A stretch of DNA of 33,778 bases from positions 1 through 33,778 of the IMG/VR virus record IMGVR_UViG_2531839450_000016; one strand, given 5' to 3'. The DNA is from a virus. Lineage: Duplodnaviria; Heunggongvirae; Uroviricota; Caudoviricetes. This document shows positions 5,202-24,628 of the stretch, piece by piece. Each line of letters opens with the position of its first letter. Positions within the stretch are counted from its first letter, which is position 1. The notes under the pieces are model-generated. The model had not been told where the DNA came from. It saw only the letters and a list, made by a program, of their open reading frames with translations, and searched no databases. Both the position numbers and the translations under genes were made by a program.

Positions 5202-5630
5202 CGTTGGCCCCGCTTCTCTGAATCGCTTTATACCGCCATTCCAGCACTTCGGTCAGCGGCATAACGTCAGTAACGGATGGCGGCCAGTGAAAAATGGTGG
5301 CGATATCTGCCACCAGATCGTCAACCGTCAGGCTGTCGGTAAACCGGCAAGCACCGACTTCTTCAACAAAAAAGTGACAACCTCAACCGACATGGCAGTG
5401 AGATCTGCCGGGTCAATCTCTGCAATTTCCTGTGCAGTCAGTACCGGACTGGAGATGCGGGGGATCACGGTCATCATCGCGTTCACATCCATATCCATAA
5501 TGGCCTGCAGGCGTGTACCGCGCAGCGCACCGGACTGCGGTTTACGCAGCACAATTTCGGTAATTTCTGTTTTACCGCGCTTGATAGGGGTATCCAGTTG
5601 AATGGTCTTTTCAGTCTGCTTATCGCTCAT
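5194..5630 (-). CDS. gpE+E' tail assembly chaperone made by programmed -1 frameshift
   Basis: The -1 frame after the slippery site T TTT TTG (minus strand, 5367-5373) stays open for about 59 codons (FFVEEVGACRFTDSLTVDDLVADIATIFHWPPS...GANDE) and stops at 5194-5196, overlapping the T start codon; this is the conserved chaperone arrangement upstream of tape measure genes. Confidence 0.6.
5328..5630 (-). CDS. E: Tail assembly chaperone gpE
   Basis: 100-aa ORF directly upstream of the tape measure gene; ends in ...VTFLLKKSVLAGLPTA with a T-TTT-TTG slippery heptamer near the 3' end. Confidence 0.85.
   Translation of the reverse strand: MSDKQTEKTIQLDTPIKRGKTEITEIVLRKPQSGALRGTRLQAIMDMDVNAMMTVIPRISSPVLTAQEIAEIDPADLTAMSVEVVTFLLKKSVLAGLPTA
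5367..5373 (-). other. Slippery heptamer T-TTT-TTG for the E/E' -1 ribosomal frameshift
   Basis: Read directly from the minus strand within codons Thr-Phe-Leu of E. Confidence 0.6.
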
Positions 5631-5684
5631 TTTGTTGTCCTGTAAATTGGGTTCTGGCGCGGTATCCCGCGCCGTTCAGATAGA

Positions 5685-6200
5685 TCAGAGGCCGAGGGCG
5701 TTGCGGTGCGCTTCCATCAGGTCTACACCGTCCACAATTTCCACCATGTTGATAAGGTCCACTTCATAGAGCACCTCACCATTGATGGTCAGCTTCGCGT
5801 AGCTGTTGGTACTGGTCACTTTGGTGGTGTTGCTTTCGCCCGTCTTCCACTCGCCGGAATCCACTTCTTTGTGACGTCCACGCACCACAAGCTCCACAGC
5901 CTGCACTTCCCCGGTATCGTCACGCTGGATAGAGCCGGTAAAGCGCAGCTGGATGCCATCCACCGTGGCTTTGCCCATCTGCTTAAACAGCAGCAGTTCA
6001 GTACCACCAATGGAAAATTCTGTATCCAGTGCACTGTCATCCAGTCCCAGATCCACATCCACCACCCCCGGCATTCCGCCACCGCGATACTTCTCATATT
6101 TGCGGGTGAATTTCGGCAGCGTCAGCGACTCAACGATCCCCTGCCAGTTGTTCCCGTCGTTAAACAGGTTCAGGTGTTTTAATTTGCGTGGTAAAGCCAT
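5685..6200 (-). CDS. FII: Tail tube protein gpFII
   Basis: 171-aa ORF immediately downstream of the sheath gene; P2 synteny and size. Confidence 0.9.
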   Translation of the reverse strand: MALPRKLKHLNLFNDGNNWQGIVESLTLPKFTRKYEKYRGGGMPGVVDVDLGLDDSALDTEFSIGGTELLLFKQMGKATVDGIQLRFTGSIQRDDTGEVQAVELVVRGRHKEVDSGEWKTGESNTTKVTSTNSYAKLTINGEVLYEVDLINMVEIVDGVDLMEAHRNALGL

Positions 6201-8097: not shown

Positions 8098-8146
8098 TCC
8101 CCTGAATAAAAACCGGGGATGATGCCAGTTAGCTGTTACCTCTGCA

Positions 8147-8172
8147 TTTTCTTAAACGTTGGTTTGGGAGAA
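8147..8172. repeat. Invertase crossover site 1 (cix/gix-like 26-mer)
   Basis: TTTTCTTAAACGTTGGTTTGGGAGAA; its reverse complement shares the 14-nt TTCTCCCAAACCAA with the site at 9677-9702; fits the TTnTnnnAAACC-nn-GGTTTnnnAnAA pattern of Din-family sites. Confidence 0.7.
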
Positions 8173-8526
8173 GCGGCAAAACGAAATGTGGGTAACGAGC
8201 AAAACCAAATTCCGGATATGGCGGCGTTTGCCAGTTCACTTTCATCAACGGGTTTTCAAAAACTCCCTTCAGGTCTGATTATTCAGTGGGGTATAGTCAG
8301 TGGAGCATCAAACTATACGGTGACTTACCCGGTAACATTCCCAAATCGTTCACTTGCGCTGTTGGCTGTACCACATACAACGTCGGTGGCGGGTATATCT
8401 GCAATGGGCATAGCGAACTGTTCTGATATCAGCAAATCACAGTTCTATATAATTGTTGGCGGTATATCTCAGGGAGAAATTGTCAAATATGAAAGGTCCT
8501 GTTTTTGGGTAGCAATCGGTGTATAG
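8161..8526 (+). CDS. Silent alternative tail-fibre C-terminal cassette (would fuse to H after inversion)
   Basis: Open frame begins at the crossover site with GLGE, the same junction residues as in H (..AYLGLGELS..); shares LIIQWG with the expressed H C-terminus; has no constant N-terminal part in this orientation. Confidence 0.6.
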   Translation, partial: GLGEAAKRNVGNEQNQIPDMAAFASSLSSTGFQKLPSGLIIQWGIVSGASNYTVTYPVTFPNRSLALLAVPHTTSVAGISAMGIANCSDISKSQFYIIVGGISQGEIVKYERSCFWVAIGV

Positions 8527-8534
8527 GTATATCT

Positions 8535-8930
8535 ATGATTTATTTCTCAAAATCGACTAATGGTTTTTTCTTCGATGGTATAAACAGTGACATGCCTGCT
8601 GACATTGTTGAGATATGTACAGACTTATACAATGAATTAATTGCCGGACAGCAGGAAGGGGGTAAATTAATTACGTCAGATGAAAATGGTTTACCGGTAC
8701 TAAAATCCCCGGCGATTGATTATGTCGCACGTGCGGAAAATCAGCGAATGCAGTTACTTGCTCATGCCGATAATGTCACAGCTGACTGGCGAGTGGAATT
8801 AATGCTTGGTGATATTAGCAGTACAGATAAAGAAAAACTATCCGCCTGGATGGACTACAAAAAAGAAGTAAAAGCCGTCGACACTTCGACGGCTCCTGAG
8901 ATTAGCTGGCCTGAGTTACCGGAGGTGTAG
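8535..8930 (+). CDS. Alternative tail-fibre assembly chaperone
   Basis: ORF starting MIYFSKSTNGFFFDG..., ending ...VDTSTAPEISWPELPEV, the typical C-terminus of tail-fibre assembly proteins; follows the silent cassette. Confidence 0.7.
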   Translation: MIYFSKSTNGFFFDGINSDMPADIVEICTDLYNELIAGQQEGGKLITSDENGLPVLKSPAIDYVARAENQRMQLLAHADNVTADWRVELMLGDISSTDKEKLSAWMDYKKEVKAVDTSTAPEISWPELPEV

Positions 8931-9339
8931 GCCATTCAATATCTGGAGCACTGGAGGTATCCACCAGTTCCAGTGCGTCCAGGTAATCCAGCCACAAATT
9001 ATATAGTGCCAGTTCCTCACCTTTCAGACGACCAATAGCTGCTTTGCCAGGCCATTGCTTACTGTTCATGTATTCGTTGGCCTGATTAAGCAATAATTGC
9101 CTTTCTGTTTCTGCCTGTTGAATAAGTTCTTCATGTGATGGTGGAGGTATTAGTGCCCATGTGGGTAATCCATTTTTTCCTGCAACACGAATTTTGTCAT
9201 CTGGGGGCGTATTGATTGCAAATTCATTATAAACATCATCACTGACAGCCAGAGCATCATCTGGCCATGAATTTGCATTAATGTAATCATCCTTAAGCGC
9301 AGGATTCACAAAAATGTTTAAAGATGGACTATAAAACAT
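8902..9339 (-). CDS. Tail-fibre assembly chaperone (expressed orientation)
   Basis: 145-aa ORF immediately downstream of H, ending ...LVDTSSAPDIEWPTPPV. Confidence 0.8.
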   Translation of the reverse strand: MFYSPSLNIFVNPALKDDYINANSWPDDALAVSDDVYNEFAINTPPDDKIRVAGKNGLPTWALIPPPSHEELIQQAETERQLLLNQANEYMNSKQWPGKAAIGRLKGEELALYNLWLDYLDALELVDTSSAPDIEWPTPPVTQAS

Positions 9340-9340
9340 A

Positions 9341-10738
9341 TTACACCCCTATAGCGATATAACGACCTAATACAGCGTTTGCAGCAGTCGCTATGCTTGA
9401 AAAACCGCGGAACTGATTTGATGTAATTGCAGAAGCCGACAGGATTCCTGCGCCTGAAGGTGTATGCCCCACATGACTAACTATCATTCCATAACATGCT
9501 GACGGAAAGGCAAAAGGAAAATCATTAAGATATCCGGCATCTTCACCACCAGACCCACCAAATCTCGCCTGCCCCCACTGAATAATCAGTGTTCTCCGGG
9601 AACCTGAAATAATTAACGGAATCGTTACATACCCATTCAGACCAATGACACCCGATGCAGTGCCAGCCAGAGATAATTCTCCCAAACCAAGGTATGCGAG
9701 AAGACCAGCTACATCCTTTCCACTCAAATTAGTCAGCGTATTGTCCAGCGGTTGTTTACCTGCTAGCGCATTAAGCATTGTCGTGGCAAAGTTCGGGTCA
9801 TTCCCCAGCGCCGCCGCCAGTTCGTTCAATGTATCCAGTGCCGCAGGTGCAGAACCCACCATTCCTGCAATCGCCGATTTCACAAAAGCCGTAGTGGCAA
9901 TCTGTGTATTGTTGACCGACTGTGCCGCAGTAGGTGCTGTTGGCGTTCCGGTAAGTGCCGGACTCGACAGCGGCGCTTTCAGTGCCAGCGCATTATTAAT
10001 AGTGGTACTGAATTTCGGGTCATTGTTAATGGCTGCGGCAATTTCTTTCAGCGTGTCCAGCGTGGCTGGCGCACCATTAATCAGGGTCGTCAGTGCCGCC
10101 TGAACAAACGCGGTCGTAGCAAGTTGCGTGGTATTATTCCCCACCGCTGGCGTTGGCGCTTTGGGGGTTCCGGTAAATGTCGGGCTGGCTTTTGGCGCGT
10201 ACTGTGAATGTGGGTCCTGTGCAGCAAGATGTTTTGCCATCAGGTCAACCACGTACACCTTCAGCTCCAGTACCTTGTCATCCACATACTTGCGGGTTGC
10301 CAGCACTACGGCAGGGTCGATTTTCAGGGTGATATTGTCCGTGCTGCTGGTAATCAGCACCATGCGCACGGTCTGGGTACGCCCGCTGCCTTCAGCCAGT
10401 TGCGGCTTATAGCTTTCCGGGCAGTTGCCCACGGCAATCAATGCCCCGGACTCATCAAACAGACCCACTTCACGTATCCACCAACCGCCCTCGTTTTCAG
10501 GGATCACCTGTTCAGCAATAATCTGGCTGCTGTTCTGCGGGTCGATATAGAGCATATTCAGCGCAGCCCGGCGTTTCTCATTTACTAATGCTGTCTGCTT
10601 TGCGTCCGGCGTTGGCAATGTTCCGCCGCCATCGCCGACCGCCATATGGGTAATTTTTAAAGGCACACCGAGCGCGGCGGCGCTGGCAAGTTTCGCCGCG
10701 CCAATATCCGTTAGCAGGGTATAAAATTTTGTGCTCAT
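9341..10738 (-). CDS. H: Tail fibre protein gpH (constant part 9703-10738, variable C-terminus 9341-9676 inside the invertible segment)
   Basis: 465-aa ORF between I and the assembly chaperone with repeated Ala/Thr-rich fibre motifs (e.g. TQLATTAFV and TQIATTAFV); crossover site embedded in the coding sequence. Confidence 0.85.
   Translation of the reverse strand: MSTKFYTLLTDIGAAKLASAAALGVPLKITHMAVGDGGGTLPTPDAKQTALVNEKRRAALNMLYIDPQNSSQIIAEQVIPENEGGWWIREVGLFDESGALIAVGNCPESYKPQLAEGSGRTQTVRMVLITSSTDNITLKIDPAVVLATRKYVDDKVLELKVYVVDLMAKHLAAQDPHSQYAPKASPTFTGTPKAPTPAVGNNTTQLATTAFVQAALTTLINGAPATLDTLKEIAAAINNDPKFSTTINNALALKAPLSSPALTGTPTAPTAAQSVNNTQIATTAFVKSAIAGMVGSAPAALDTLNELAAALGNDPNFATTMLNALAGKQPLDNTLTNLSGKDVAGLLAYLGLGELSLAGTASGVIGLNGYVTIPLIISGSRRTLIIQWGQARFGGSGGEDAGYLNDFPFAFPSACYGMIVSHVGHTPSGAGILSASAITSNQFRGFSSIATAANAVLGRYIAIGV
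9677..9702. repeat. Invertase crossover site 2 (cix/gix-like 26-mer) inside H
   Basis: TTCTCCCAAACCAAGGTATGCGAGAA, an inverted partner of 8147-8172. Confidence 0.7.
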
Positions 10739-12241: not shown

Positions 12242-12587
12242 TCTCTGCTCCTGTTGATACGGAAAGGGAAACAGGCACACCGTTATTACGCCGCCCGGCC
12301 AGGTCCACCACCATAGAACCGTCAAAGTTGCTGTTGATGGTGATGGAATCCAGCGTCAGCCGTGGCTCCCAGCGACTCAGCGCCACATACACTGCCGACA
12401 TGACCTGCAGGCGTAATGCCGGATTTTGTGGCTGGTCTATCAGTGCCGACAGCAGGGAACCATATTCCCGACGGGCAATGCGGCTACCCTGTGGCGTCAG
12501 CAGAATGTCCCGCACCGACTGGCGCAGATGGTCAATATCAGTAATGGCTTTGCCGCTGGTATTGTTCATCCCGCTATAAAGCGTCAT
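12228..12587 (-). CDS. W: Baseplate protein gpW (gp25-like)
   Basis: 119-aa ORF between V and J; P2 synteny and size. Confidence 0.8.
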   Translation of the reverse strand: MTLYSGMNNTSGKAITDIDHLRQSVRDILLTPQGSRIARREYGSLLSALIDQPQNPALRLQVMSAVYVALSRWEPRLTLDSITINSNFDGSMVVDLAGRRNNGVPVSLSVSTGAENGSD

Positions 12588-13162
12588 ACCGGTCCTCCGG
12601 TTGTGTCGCCGCCTTTCAGGACGCCAGTATGCTGATGCGCATCAACCACGATCCCCCTGGAACTCATTGCACCGCCGCCCTGGGTAACGCCACCATTGAT
12701 CACCACTTCGCTGTTAATACGCGTGCGGTCAGCCTCCAGCACAAACTCACTGGTTTTCATGGTGATGTTGTCAGCGGCCTCAATGACCATTGATTTGATG
12801 CCCCTGACATACCAGCGCCCGGTGGCGGGTTCGTATTCAAACCAGCCGCCGTCAGGATGTTCTGTCACGCAGGCGTCTGCCGACGTCGACGGTGGCGCGA
12901 ACTGATTCGAATAGACAGCGGGCAGCGCAAAGGCGGTTTCCAGATTTCCGCCCAGACTCAGCAGCACCACCTGCTCACCTTCCGATGGTCGCCACCATGT
13001 CCGGGCATTCCCGGCACGCAGCGTCAGCCAGCTGATCCAGTTGGTTTCAAGCTCGCCCGTTTTCACCCGGCAAAGCCAGTTCTCCCGATCCACTTCGGTG
13101 ACTACACCAGTGCGGATCAGGTTGGTGATAAGGCGCATGATTTCGGTTAGTTGTGCGTTCAT
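12584..13162 (-). CDS. V: Baseplate spike protein gpV
   Basis: 192-aa ORF, first gene downstream of the late-promoter dyad; P2 synteny. Confidence 0.85.
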   Translation of the reverse strand: MNAQLTEIMRLITNLIRTGVVTEVDRENWLCRVKTGELETNWISWLTLRAGNARTWWRPSEGEQVVLLSLGGNLETAFALPAVYSNQFAPPSTSADACVTEHPDGGWFEYEPATGRWYVRGIKSMVIEAADNITMKTSEFVLEADRTRINSEVVINGGVTQGGGAMSSRGIVVDAHQHTGVLKGGDTTGGPV

Positions 13163-13205
13163 CTACTAAGGATGATGAATTATCGACTTCTACGGTAGAT
13201 CAGGT

Positions 13206-13231
13206 ACATTGTGCTATAAATGGCACAATGT
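13206..13231. promoter_or_regulatory. Candidate Ogr-binding dyad of the late promoter for the V-W-J-I-H operon
   Basis: Perfect palindrome ACATTGTGC-N8-GCACAATGT containing TGT-N12-ACA, about 56 bp upstream of the V start codon. Confidence 0.5.
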
Positions 13232-13254
13232 ATCTTCCAAGGATAAAATTTAAG

Positions 13255-13914
13255 ATGATGGTTCTTGACGAACAAAAATATAACGAAATATTGAAAACAA
13301 TGGAAAAACGAGCTAGCCGCTCTAAAATTACTACGCTCTTATTTTTATATATTTTATTAACTGCTGTACTCTGCATTCCTGCAACTTATATTTTTTATAA
13401 AGCAGAAAGTAATAAGCGTGACAATGCACTTGCCTCACTTAGATTGAGCTCTCAGCAAATAGAATCTGCTTTCGAAAAGTTCACCATCATGCAACAGTTA
13501 ACTGATAAACTTGCACAAGCATCAGAAAACCTCAACGCTTCAAAAAATTCAAATCCGATAATCAAAAAAAATGAATCAGGTATTAATTCAACATACCTAA
13601 ATACTAAAAGCACCTTTGAAAAAGCCATTGAAACCGCGGCACCTTATTTACTAATCTTATCTGGGATATTATTCACTGGATATATACTTCGGTTATTTAT
13701 TGTGTTCATTAAATACAACATGCAAATGAGCAACGACTATGACAACCAGAGAATTGCATTCTTACTATCGCAAGGTGATACTGATGAGTTCGGCAAAATC
13801 ATTCAAACATTACGTGAACACAATGTAAGTTTCGAAAAAACCCCCAATCTACTTCAAGAAAAAATCATCATAGAATTAATGAGTCTTTTACGCTCATCCA
13901 AAAATAAGAGCTAA
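13255..13914 (+). CDS. AT-rich accessory (moron) gene encoding a two-transmembrane-helix protein of unknown function
   Basis: ORF on the strand opposite to the flanking late genes; AAGGA ribosome-binding site before the ATG at 13255; hydrophobic segments ITTLLFLYILLTAVLCIPATYIFY and PYLLILSGILFTGYILRLFIVFI; strongly A/T-biased codon use. Confidence 0.6.
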   Translation: MMVLDEQKYNEILKTMEKRASRSKITTLLFLYILLTAVLCIPATYIFYKAESNKRDNALASLRLSSQQIESAFEKFTIMQQLTDKLAQASENLNASKNSNPIIKKNESGINSTYLNTKSTFEKAIETAAPYLLILSGILFTGYILRLFIVFIKYNMQMSNDYDNQRIAFLLSQGDTDEFGKIIQTLREHNVSFEKTPNLLQEKIIIELMSLLRSSKNKS

Positions 13915-14387
13915 CTTATAAGCCATCGAACTAGGATATTCCTAGTTCGAGTTTCTACTTCATCATTCCCCCCTAACAAACGACGCTCTGCATAACGGAC
14001 CTCTGGTCCTTTGCGGCTGACGCGATCACGCAGGCCGTAATGGTGAACGCGGGCAATGCGCTGTACCTTGCCTTCAAACTGCACGCTGGCAGAGTCGGCG
14101 CTGGCGGCAGTTTTCAGGTATTTTGTGGTGCGAAGCTTTGCAAACATCTGGCGTTTGATGCGTCCCTTTTTACTGCGTATTGTAACCCGTCGCGGTTCAT
14201 AACTGCTGCCATCAGGATTGCGCTGCATCCTGATGTTCTGCTGCTGTGTCCGGCGCAGTTCCTGCGCCAGCTGACGCATCATGCGGCTTCTTGCGGCTGG
14301 TTCCAGATTCGCCAGTAAGGCACTAAGCCAGTCGTCCACCTTCTGTAGTTCAGCCACGTTTAACCGTCCACATTTCTTCAGGTTCAT
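13911..14387 (-). CDS. S: Tail completion protein gpS
   Basis: 158-aa ORF downstream of R; P2 synteny. Confidence 0.8.
   Translation of the reverse strand: MNLKKCGRLNVAELQKVDDWLSALLANLEPAARSRMMRQLAQELRRTQQQNIRMQRNPDGSSYEPRRVTIRSKKGRIKRQMFAKLRTTKYLKTAASADSASVQFEGKVQRIARVHHYGLRDRVSRKGPEVRYAERRLLGGNDEVETRTRNILVRWLIS
13927..13949. terminator. Perfect 9-bp hairpin downstream of the moron gene, inside the 3' end of S
   Basis: CGAACTAGG-atatt-CCTAGTTCG read directly; not followed by a clear T-run, so function is uncertain. Confidence 0.35.
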
Positions 14388-22305: not shown

Positions 22306-23385
22306 CTAACATTGTTTACATAAATCAGAAAAACTACCACCGAAATAATACAGTGCAGATTTATCATTTAGTTCTTTAAAAACTTCACACGCACGCTGGT
22401 GTATCTCAATAGCACTAGATTTATTTCGCCCAATAATAACAGTCTCTTTTTCAGTACTATCGCCATCCAGAAAAGTCTTCAAAAGAAAATTAATAATAAA
22501 GTCTTCCTTTGGGAAAGAATAACCTATAAAGATCAACAGATCTGCTTGTCTCAACTGGGTAGAGGATTTCACAAAAGCTGTCTTAAAGTATTTATCCCCA
22601 TAGTCTTGTTCATTTGAAGGCAAGATAATATTTGGAACAACTTTTGCGTTTAATAATGAATCATAATCTATTTTAAAACCATCCCTTGCAGCAACAACCT
22701 CAAATCCTCCATTAAGCTTATACAAACCTATACCTTTAGGCTGAGGACACACTAATATATTATTATGATGCACAGGAAAACCCCGATTAACTGAACGTTC
22801 AGGGAATGCATGATGTAGCACTTTATCAATAACTATATCGTAGTTTGTTGTGACTACATCCAGTGCTGAAGCTTCCTGTAAACTCTTAAAGAAAGAAATA
22901 ATATTCCTTTTATTCTGCCCAAATTTTGCAGTTTGACTTAGCTTTAAATCATTTGCCGGTATTTTTTTTGCAAACTTATTTTTTACATATAGTTTTACTT
23001 GTGCCTCAAACAACTCAAGCGTATGCCTATCAAGATACGACGGCAATAAACTTGGATATCGCTTATAAACATCCAATGCATATTTAAAACTCTTGAAAAC
23101 ATTAGCTTTGTCATCTAAACCTGCATTAGCATCCGCCCATTTAAATTTAAGACTGTCGAACAAAGAAAAAAAACCATACTCATCAATATTTTCTAATGCT
23201 TCGTCTTCAGAGATGGAAAAGACTTCATTACTCAATGGGTATTTGTCATCCCAGGCTTTAGAAAATCCTGCTCCGAGAAAAACACATACTCTTCGCTCTC
23301 TTATTTTTGATTTCAATGTGGCGAAGGATGTAATTTCTAAATTATTAGGTGTCAAAATATCACCATCATAAGCAAAGCTAGTCAT
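22306..23385 (-). CDS. SIR2-like domain protein (putative NAD-dependent effector), second gene of an accessory cassette
   Basis: 359-aa ORF carrying, in order, VCVFLGAGFSKAW, VVTTNYD, YKLNGG and LLIFIGYSFPKED, which match the motif order of SIR2-like defence domains as I recall them; strongly AT-rich; starts 13 nt after the ATPase stop. Confidence 0.6.
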   Translation of the reverse strand: MTSFAYDGDILTPNNLEITSFATLKSKIRERRVCVFLGAGFSKAWDDKYPLSNEVFSISEDEALENIDEYGFFSLFDSLKFKWADANAGLDDKANVFKSFKYALDVYKRYPSLLPSYLDRHTLELFEAQVKLYVKNKFAKKIPANDLKLSQTAKFGQNKRNIISFFKSLQEASALDVVTTNYDIVIDKVLHHAFPERSVNRGFPVHHNNILVCPQPKGIGLYKLNGGFEVVAARDGFKIDYDSLLNAKVVPNIILPSNEQDYGDKYFKTAFVKSSTQLRQADLLIFIGYSFPKEDFIINFLLKTFLDGDSTEKETVIIGRNKSSAIEIHQRACEVFKELNDKSALYYFGGSFSDLCKQC

Positions 23386-23398
23386 GTTTTTCTCACGC

Positions 23399-24628
23399 TT
23401 AGTTTTTTATATCAAGAAAAGCTGGAACTAATCCAAATTCGCCACGTAAATATTTGGCAGACACTTTAGCATCTTTCCTTACAGAAAATACCGTAGCATT
23501 AGTTATTATCGACGCTTTAGATGAATCCTTGACTATAATATTAAGCTCATCTCTTCTAAACACATCATCTAATAAAGGAATATTATGTGTAGACATAATA
23601 AACTGCACACCATTTTTACGGCAGGTTTTATCAAATATTTTTTTGATTAGTGCACTTGCCAAAGAATAGTGAATAGATGAATCTATTTCATCCACATAAA
23701 GTGTAAAATCATATTCACTAGCCCAAATCAATATTGCTAAAAATGTTAAAACATTTAGTGTGCCTTGGGAAAAAAATTCATCCCTACGGTCAGGGCCTAT
23801 TCTAGTAAAATCACCATCATCATTTTTTATGAGATAAACAAATTTATACTCATTATCTTCGCCAAATCTTACAAATTCAACTTTATCTATATGCAGCGGC
23901 GACTGAATAACCATTTCATTATAGGTATTTAAAATTCTTTGACCACTCTCATTTAATTTTTCATTTCCTTCCTCACCTGATAACTGGCGCTTAAGTTGTC
24001 CTTCAACAAATTTAAGACTTGGATTTTTGAATTTTTCAGAGTAATAAGGCAATTGTTTTAATGCCCAGCGTTGGGTTTCAACAAGAGCATCAATTTCTAA
24101 AGATTTTGCAAAAGTTACAACAGCTCCACTTTCTCTTAAGACAGGATTAATCAACGACTCGTATTTTTTTAAGTCGGGCTTTTTGAAAACCAACCCATTT
24201 TCATTGCGAATAAAAATACATTGTTCCCTTGCATTTTTTCTTATCGGTCTAATGTATAAATACTCATCTACAATAACTTCATTTAAAACTGACACACCAT
24301 AACGGACGAAGTTTTTTTGCTCTTCATCAATCAGTATCGCTTCATAGGAAGTAGGTTTGTTACGACATTCCTTATTTAGAAGGAAAGGCATATGCAATTT
24401 GTGTAATGTGTCACTATGAATTGAATTTGCAAATTCAGTAATAGCATTTATTAATTGTGTTTTACCAACACCATTTCCGCCTATTAATGCGGCAAATCTG
24501 TTTACTCTTAAACCATTCGCTAATGTCACGATATGTTCAGGATGCTCATCCCCAATTGAGGAAGCAAAACTAAGAACCTGTCTTTCGCGAAAGCTCTTGT
24601 AATTTTCTAAACTGAATGCAACTAGCAT
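23399..24628 (-). CDS. ABC-type (AAA_15/AAA_21-like) ATPase, first gene of an accessory cassette
   Basis: 409-aa ORF; N-terminal MLVAFSLENYKSF followed by Walker A GGNGVGKT at about residue 50; C-terminal LYVDEIDSSIH (Walker B/D-loop) and STHN (H-loop-like); GAGGA ribosome-binding site 6 nt before the ATG; AT-rich. Confidence 0.7.
   Translation of the reverse strand: MLVAFSLENYKSFRERQVLSFASSIGDEHPEHIVTLANGLRVNRFAALIGGNGVGKTQLINAITEFANSIHSDTLHKLHMPFLLNKECRNKPTSYEAILIDEEQKNFVRYGVSVLNEVIVDEYLYIRPIRKNAREQCIFIRNENGLVFKKPDLKKYESLINPVLRESGAVVTFAKSLEIDALVETQRWALKQLPYYSEKFKNPSLKFVEGQLKRQLSGEEGNEKLNESGQRILNTYNEMVIQSPLHIDKVEFVRFGEDNEYKFVYLIKNDDGDFTRIGPDRRDEFFSQGTLNVLTFLAILIWASEYDFTLYVDEIDSSIHYSLASALIKKIFDKTCRKNGVQFIMSTHNIPLLDDVFRRDELNIIVKDSSKASIITNATVFSVRKDAKVSAKYLRGEFGLVPAFLDIKN

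Follow-up and report, generated by a model that had tools for sequence, protein, structure and literature searches.

A self-contained accessory-gene cassette for a predicted membrane protein at the orf30 locus of a P2-like Escherichia coli prophage

An accessory gene between V and S

In a 33,778-nucleotide stretch of viral DNA (IMG/VR record IMGVR_UViG_2531839450_000016; hereafter, the window), which represents a P2-like (Peduoviridae) Escherichia coli prophage, the interval between the late genes V and S holds a self-contained accessory-gene cassette at the classical orf30 variable locus of these phages. The accessory gene (13255–13914, plus strand), delimited by its open reading frame (ORF), a RefSeq coding sequence and a profile match, encodes a 219-residue protein with two predicted membrane helices that belongs to PHROG 2611, a family without assigned function. 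Comparison with its relatives indicates that the gene is real and under purifying selection, that it is dispensable for phage growth, and that its cassette has passed between diverged P2-like backbones. We tentatively propose, by analogy and with somewhat less than even confidence, that the product is a prophage-expressed, envelope-level protein that excludes superinfecting phages.

Both flanking genes lie on the minus strand. To the left, V (12584–13162) encodes the baseplate assembly protein gpV, as named in RefSeq, and is 99.5% identical to V of Escherichia phage 500465-1; to the right, S (13911–14357) starts with GTG and encodes the 148-residue tail completion/virion morphogenesis protein gpS. 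V and S are 93–99% identical to their counterparts in phage 500465-1, Klebsiella phage KP12 and relatives, and the first 25 kb of the window have matches in hundreds of E. coli chromosomes. A previous reading of the sequence alone (the sequence-only reading) had described an A/T-biased plus-strand ORF, coding for two transmembrane helices, between minus-strand V and S. This description holds: the identical 660-bp coding sequence is annotated in RefSeq (hypothetical protein WP_000989498.1), the protein has two hydrophobic peaks (see below), and the G+C (GC) content of the ORF is 0.33, as compared with 0.58 for V and 0.54 for S. The convergent stop codons of the accessory gene and S overlap within CTAA, an arrangement kept in the window and in the related loci L003, L010 and L131, and the last ~20 codons of S are part of the variable segment.

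The orf30 region, Z/fun and the TO region are the three places at which P2-like phages carry non-P2 genes (PMC6823313, PMC3091744). The introduction of the hotspot study by Rousset et al. names two variable P2-like loci that include anti-phage genes, and a later hotspot survey highlights old/tin, Z/fun and, as a third hotspot, the stretch that separates a tail protein gene from the CI regulator gene; in the parts of these two sources considered here, exclusion of or defence against other phages is reported for P2 old, tin and fun(Z) of the other two variable loci, and the S–V interval is not discussed. Of these three P2 regions, orf30 has been studied least, and its cargo, P2's own Orf30 among it, has no known function.

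That the gene is a moron at the orf30 site, as first supposed, is borne out by the literature on this locus and by the state of the site in close relatives. In phage 500465-1 the V–S interval is empty and measures 68 bp (V is 98–99% identical in close relatives with an empty site), and among the 80 IMG/VR contigs closest to the window in S, 77 likewise have an empty site and one more carries a different cargo. Since near-identical phages lack the gene, phage growth does not require it. Unrelated cargos replace it elsewhere: CARTA_14 of Cartapus, an annotated coding sequence of 176 residues with no obvious hydrophobic segment on inspection, and a DUF6216 membrane protein in locus L054 (3955–4650, minus strand), which is not related to P2 Orf30 either. 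Both are found in this interval, encoded on the opposite strand, and share no sequence relationship with the window protein; they reside in phages with flanks of 93–98% identity, and neither of these alternative cargos matched a PADLOC model.

P2 orf30 resembles the window gene in that it lies between S and V on the opposite strand, is dispensable, and has its start codon at a distance of 15–20 nt from the V-promoter activator site. The Orf30 protein also looks membrane-bound, with three hydrophobic segments, one close to either end and one midway (L043 940–1725, minus strand, by inspection). However, homology of the two proteins was rejected (hhalign probability 0.7%), and P2 has a separate terminator between S and orf30, whereas in the window the stop codons overlap and a hairpin lies inside S. 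The size comparison of the sequence-only reading, which set a "much larger" gene against a small orf30, has to be reversed, as P2 orf30 measures 786 bp (261 residues) and encodes the larger protein. Three of the four cargo types examined at the V–S site (the window family and, both with the look of multi-pass proteins, P2 Orf30 and the DUF6216 protein) seem membrane-bound, which suggests that the S–V interval favours membrane-protein cargo.

The cassette gene belongs to a conserved protein family

The window protein matches the phrog_2611 profile over its full length (E = 2.6e-29; residues 6–210 on profile positions 4–216 of 230), as do 71 of 77 aligned relatives (best E = 2.2e-96). A profile search of 1.84 billion representatives yielded 96 relatives at E < 1e-3, and 19 clusters, every one of them named hypothetical, were retrieved from E. 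coli, Enterobacter and Klebsiella by a word-indexed search; named members of the family come from Enterobacter, Serratia, Yersinia and Klebsiella. All family members are AT-rich, with a GC content of 0.31–0.36 in 32 loci of related genes.

Between the window gene and the 87%-identical Enterobacter cloacae allele (L131) there are 34.5 synonymous and 28.5 non-synonymous differences, giving a ratio of non-synonymous to synonymous rates (dN/dS) of 0.18. The ratio is 0.30 for the region between the two membrane helices (the loop) and 0.07 for the second helix and the C-terminus. Such purifying selection at the protein level argues that the protein itself matters. It also bears on the trivial explanation that the ORF arose by chance in an AT-rich spacer. 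The base composition, which imposes few GC-rich stop-free constraints, and the lack of any known domain would fit that explanation, but the low dN/dS, the full-length PHROG match and full-length homologues that retain invariant motifs down to 30% identity refute it, and we consider it hardly credible.

Searches against annotated domains and structures gave no handle on function. The window protein has no meaningful match in Pfam, NCBIfam or PADLOC, and none of the defence models of PADLOC-DB 2.0 was matched. Pfam hits to DUF3112 (E = 1.9e-4, under the curated cutoff), which we take to be a fungal membrane family, and to DUF2999 were judged to be compositional noise of membrane helices. A PDB profile search returned only coiled-coil or membrane-helix noise, the best hit (E = 0.0028) being a designed coiled coil. 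When 48 relatives were scanned against 5027 PADLOC models, AbiEii, Type I S subunit, RTasSLATT and HamA were each matched by one relative at E values of 1e-4 to 1e-2, and these matches were dismissed as chance. A literature search on the family and its accession numbers found nothing.

The exchange unit comprises parts of V and S

Comparison of the window with L131 delimits an exchange unit of ~870 bp (13080–13950). Sliding nucleotide identity between the two is mostly 0.85–1.00 across ~13080–13950, with dips to 0.73–0.75 in mid-gene, and mostly 0.63–0.87 in the flanks. Synonymous divergence (dS) shows the same boundaries: it is 0.31 in the accessory gene, as compared with 1.01 in V and 1.04 in R, and it drops from 1.03 in S codons 1–125 to 0.44 in S codons 126–148. 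Based on this plateau and on the low dS relative to the flanks, the moving unit comprises the 5′ end of V, the dyad-containing V promoter, the accessory gene and the end of S, and so brings along a V promoter and an S C-terminus of its own. Homology to phages with an empty site or other cargo breaks at the V start codon and at ~13960–13975 inside S. No signature of an insertion element was found: neither direct repeats nor a transposase flank the cassette, and there is no target-site duplication. These comparisons indicate that the cassette has passed between diverged P2-like backbones, an exchange most simply explained by homologous recombination within V and S.

The sequence-only reading had further supposed that the insertion remodelled the C-terminus of S. 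The last 15–23 S codons do lie within the exchanged segment, and in the window–L131 pair the S tail travels with the cassette. Among the cassette-bearing P2-like phages compared, mean identity is 51% in the S tail and 79% in the rest of S. However, S keeps its length (146–148 residues) and the pattern RRLLG..N....WL, its tail varies across cassette-bearing phages and also differs in the empty-site relative 500465-1, and across the family the S C-terminus is no more co-variant with the cargo than the rest of S (Spearman 0.38 versus 0.36). Because the tail retains length and pattern and varies in this way, "remodelled" overstates the change.

L131 (900–3700; Enterobacter cloacae JBBBYG010000003.1) is a P2-like prophage remnant that has lost the tail genes J to D, so that ogr adjoins W, and its cassette gene is intact. 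In the Klebsiella-type P2-like IMG/VR loci L010 and L013 (3700–6100 in each), a tandem duplication of lysC-R-S surrounds the cassette, so that the genes run V, S′, R′, lysC′, cassette gene, S, R. Of the two S copies, the one proximal to V ends in a C-terminus of the empty-site type and is frameshifted in L013, and the duplication looks like the product of unequal recombination between cassette-bearing and empty-site phages.

The cassette recurs in diverged P2-like phages and its relatives in other temperate elements

In a sample of 37 IMG/VR loci with relatives 30–48% identical to the window protein, at least 29 have the order V(−)–gene(+)–S(−), with V and S 57–99% identical to those of the window; three more are truncated contigs that fit this order, and four lack V and S nearby. 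The same order is present in L003, L004 and the Enterobacter cloacae prophage remnant L131, and the gene likewise stands between V and S in Klebsiella Kapieceevirus phages and in a Dryocola genome. The gene is thus not a one-off foreign insertion, as the same family occupies the V–S site in many diverged P2-like phages. Nor does the refuting case named in the sequence-only reading hold, a gene of phage-like composition conserved in most P2-like phages: the family is AT-rich and rare. GenBank has 319 phage records that encode a gpV homologue, of which seven carry the family, and of 5426 complete genomes of E. coli it is present in 14. The window allele accounts for seven of these 14 and is carried, for example, by E. 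coli EC21Z-137 and UC4224. In one E. coli genome (GF66.2, NZ_CP172145.1, ~3046718–3048818), the distance from the V match to the part encoding the C-terminus of a distant allele is ~1.8 kb, as compared with ~0.45 kb in sister genomes, and the interval may hold extra cargo or an insertion.

Remote relatives are single genes at accessory positions of temperate elements. One is convergent with the integrase gene at the end of a lambdoid prophage; another, in an element that encodes a D5-type primase, comes after int, alpA and a Bro-N gene; a third is located at the end of a Providencia prophage, between tail-fibre-like genes and smpB; and a fourth lies downstream of cI/cII-like genes and is followed by a DUF4365 gene. 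In the contexts examined, no conserved partner gene was seen beside family members. On the lambdoid-like contig L034, a gene for a DUF4365 protein (5308–6186, plus strand; E = 2.3e-13) overlaps the 3′ end of the family member by 38 nt, and the two might form a gene pair peculiar to this setting.

A hypervariable loop is combined with a conserved C-terminal region

The Kyte-Doolittle profile of the window protein peaks at residues 25–43 (2.34) and 132–150 (2.24), in agreement with two transmembrane helices (TM1 and TM2), and the basic stretch KRASRSK directly precedes the TM1 peak. As judged from hydropathy and alignment, the layout is a short basic N-terminus, TM1, a hypervariable region of ~80 residues, TM2 and a strongly conserved C-terminal region of ~60 residues. 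Mean pairwise identities over 23 diverse members are 0.31 for the N-terminus, 0.24 for TM1, 0.16 for the loop, which ranges in length from 67 to 138 residues, 0.44 for TM2 and 0.57 for the ~60 residues that follow it. Near-invariant motifs of the C-terminal region are F(I/V)(K/R)Y(Y/N)MQ(L/M), D(Y/F)(E/D)NQ and FEKTP..PQEKII. Among near-identical Klebsiella alleles, substitutions were too few to judge diversifying selection in the loop.

An AlphaFold2 model based on a 77-sequence alignment is all-helical, with a predicted local distance difference test (pLDDT) score of 80.3; an earlier model from 16 sequences (pLDDT 60.6) was too uncertain and was not used. In five remote members, a fragment of an NlpC/P60 cell-wall peptidase is located between the helices (best E = 6.4e-8), consisting only of the GDLVFF...HVG(I/V)Y part and, by inspection, missing the Cys-bearing segment. 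A Pfam scan did not find this domain in the window protein. Placement in the inner membrane is predicted from the two putative membrane helices and the basic N-terminal flank. Because of this flank and of the NlpC/P60 fragment, both termini are predicted to be cytoplasmic and the hypervariable region to be periplasmic and, according to the model, mostly helical.

Candidate control signals surround the gene

An inverted-repeat search located a palindrome at 13202–13235, with 16-nt arms that are 88% complementary, which contains TGT-N12-ACA (13210–13227) and resembles an Ogr/Delta-type activator site of the V late promoter. Its centre lies ~56 bp from the V start codon. In P2 as annotated, the activator site spans 10239–10266, with V and transcription start at 10308; since the spacing to V equals that of the P2 annotation, we assign the dyad to the V promoter. 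A TTGT...ACAA dyad is found at the equivalent position in all cassettes and also in the empty site. The accessory ORF does begin just beyond this dyad, as the sequence-only reading had it. A Shine-Dalgarno-like AAGGA (13239–13243, plus strand), read from the sequence 11 nt before the ATG, is conserved in L131. A candidate extended −10 element for the accessory gene, TGcTATAAA (13212–13220, plus strand), was likewise read from the sequence within the dyad; it is kept in L131, L011, L012 and L019, although not in all cassettes. A scanning tool proposed ATGGCA-18-TAAAAT (13220–13249) as an alternative promoter candidate.

At the other end of the gene, a hairpin inside the S coding sequence had been noted as a perfect 9-bp stem at 13927–13949. 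Its location in the 3′ end of S stands, while its extent has to be corrected: folding and an inverted-repeat search define a perfect 11-bp hairpin at 13926–13950 (plus strand), followed by GTTTCTACTT. The hairpin covers roughly codons 5–13 counted from the end of S and, with the partial T-run after it, is a probable terminator of the accessory gene. The 66-nt stretch that contains it (13905–13970) has a minimum free energy of −17.4 kcal/mol (z = −4.2), and none of 200 shuffled sequences was as stable. The hairpin is kept in L131 with one change beside the loop, and it is not obvious in more distant cassettes. Published transcriptomes of the P2-like prophage BTP5 are silent on the V–S locus.

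Possible functions of the cassette

Based on the orientation of the gene against the late operons and on the integrase- or immunity-proximal sites of its relatives elsewhere, we infer that it is expressed in the lysogen. In the prophage it would have a transcript of its own, leftwards-divergent with respect to the late V promoter. Since the gene and the Ogr-dependent V promoter have one control region in common, and S-operon transcription would run antisense through the gene, late antisense transcription and Ogr occupancy of the common region would probably switch it off during lytic growth. In the lysogen, the protein would reside in the inner membrane and protect the cell at the envelope, most likely by blocking genome entry of superinfecting phages. 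The combination of a variable outer and a conserved inner part suggests that changing external partners are recognised and a common inner action is exerted; the variable periplasmic part would thus set which phages are affected, and the conserved TM2 and cytoplasmic part would provide a common anchoring or blocking function.

We favour envelope-level exclusion because of analogies to HK97 gp15, to P22 SieA, to old, tin and fun(Z), lysogenic-conversion genes of P2 that are reported to act against other phages, and to the AbiL-like and SIR2-like gene pair present in this window (see below). HK97 gp15 reportedly was described by Cumby and colleagues in 2012 as a superinfection-exclusion moron among tail genes. 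It is a protein of the inner membrane and prevents genome entry, much smaller than the window protein and with one membrane helix. As a single accessory gene among the late tail genes of a temperate phage, with a product predicted at the inner membrane, it is our favoured functional model; however, no sequence relationship between the two proteins was detected, and expression and phenotype have been shown for gp15, whereas those of the window gene are predicted only. P22 SieA is a prophage inner-membrane exclusion protein that acts on the DNA-delivery proteins of the incoming phage (PMC10883804). Like the window protein it stands alone, and its sequence types have diverged to less than 30% identity (PMC10883804); unlike it, SieA has three or four predicted helices in 162–164 residues, is encoded elsewhere in a P22-like genome, and no homology to the window protein was found. 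Tab of phage JBD26 was rejected as a counterpart, as this moron-encoded defence protein is an unrelated 83-residue protein of a Mu-like phage.

Several observations weigh against envelope-level exclusion. The window protein has no likeness in sequence or fold to any known exclusion or defence protein in PHROG, Pfam, NCBIfam, PDB or PADLOC. Its most conserved part is predicted to be cytoplasmic, which would agree with a partner in the cytoplasm no less well than with a block in the periplasm, and the periplasmic orientation of the loop derives from prediction and from an NlpC/P60 remnant found in distant relatives only. The promoter is a consensus-level guess, with a candidate −10 element that is not conserved in every cassette. 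Finally, the rarity of the family limits any claim of general importance.

Some of the same features can be read differently. The protein could be a lysogenic-conversion factor unrelated to phages, that is, an envelope protein that raises host fitness, for example by conferring tolerance to envelope stress, bacteriocins or host factors or by modulating cell-wall or membrane machinery. The occurrence of family members at moron positions of several temperate elements, the NlpC/P60 remnant in the loop of some relatives and the intact gene in the degraded prophage L131 would all suit such a role. On the other hand, the extreme variability of the loop among closely related hosts points to a partner in an arms race and not to a conserved target in the host, family members are few and patchily distributed, and there is no likeness to known virulence or immunity proteins; we consider this explanation unlikely. 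An abortive-infection effector is slightly less likely in our estimation. Such a protein would sense an envelope cue and permeabilise or depolarise the inner membrane via TM2 and C-terminal oligomerisation, so that the infected cell dies before progeny are made. In favour of it, the protein is a small membrane protein encoded on its own, in which TM2 and the C-terminal core are conserved and the outer part varies, and one remote member weakly matches the PADLOC model of a reverse transcriptase-associated SLATT protein (E = 0.006). However, this sole SLATT match is at chance level given the size of the scan, none of the 48 family members matches SLATT in Pfam, and known two-helix effectors usually come with a sensor partner, whereas the family gene always stands alone, with no sensor or signalling partner beside it.

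It is also conceivable, if improbable, that the cassette serves the phage's own cycle, either through lysis timing or tail/baseplate expression, or as an insulator/promoter module in which the protein is secondary. The 3′ end of S, the V promoter and its activator dyad are part of every cassette, lysis genes are close by, and the stop-codon overlap with S is retained in the four loci named above. Yet the gene is encoded on the strand opposite to all late genes and thus lies outside the late operon, most close relatives do without it, remote relatives sit beside integrases or immunity genes and far from tail or lysis genes, and purifying selection shows that the protein matters.

If envelope-level exclusion is true, the cassette would be relevant to phage therapy against Klebsiella and E. 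coli lysogens and would add a defence hotspot to a model phage; if it is false, the gene is an ordinary uncharacterised moron. A wider proposal, which we regard as more doubtful, is that PHROG 2611 is an unrecognised single-gene, envelope-level anti-phage family (exclusion or abortive) and the S–V interval a third, membrane-protein-dominated anti-phage reservoir in P2-like phages. The present comparison identifies one orf30 cargo family as a module that is conserved, mobile and membrane-anchored and that occurs in temperate elements of several kinds in Enterobacterales; it also defines the domain logic of the family, variable outside and conserved inside, and its exact exchange unit.

Other variable regions of the window

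Two further regions of the window stand out. At the P2 TO (old/tin) hotspot, an AT-rich two-gene block of GC ~0.33 (22306–24628, minus strand) encodes a 409-residue AAA ATPase (PADLOC AbiLi, E = 2.2e-51; also AriA-like) and an adjoining 359-residue SIR2-like protein (E = 1.9e-9). The block is probably an ATPase + SIR2 defence pair. A second dip in GC content, to 0.42–0.43, at 8100–9600 contains ORFs at 8119–8526 (plus strand), 8505–8930 (plus strand) and 8902–9339 (minus strand) and adjoins a 465-residue minus-strand ORF; by its position, this may be the Z/fun variable region.

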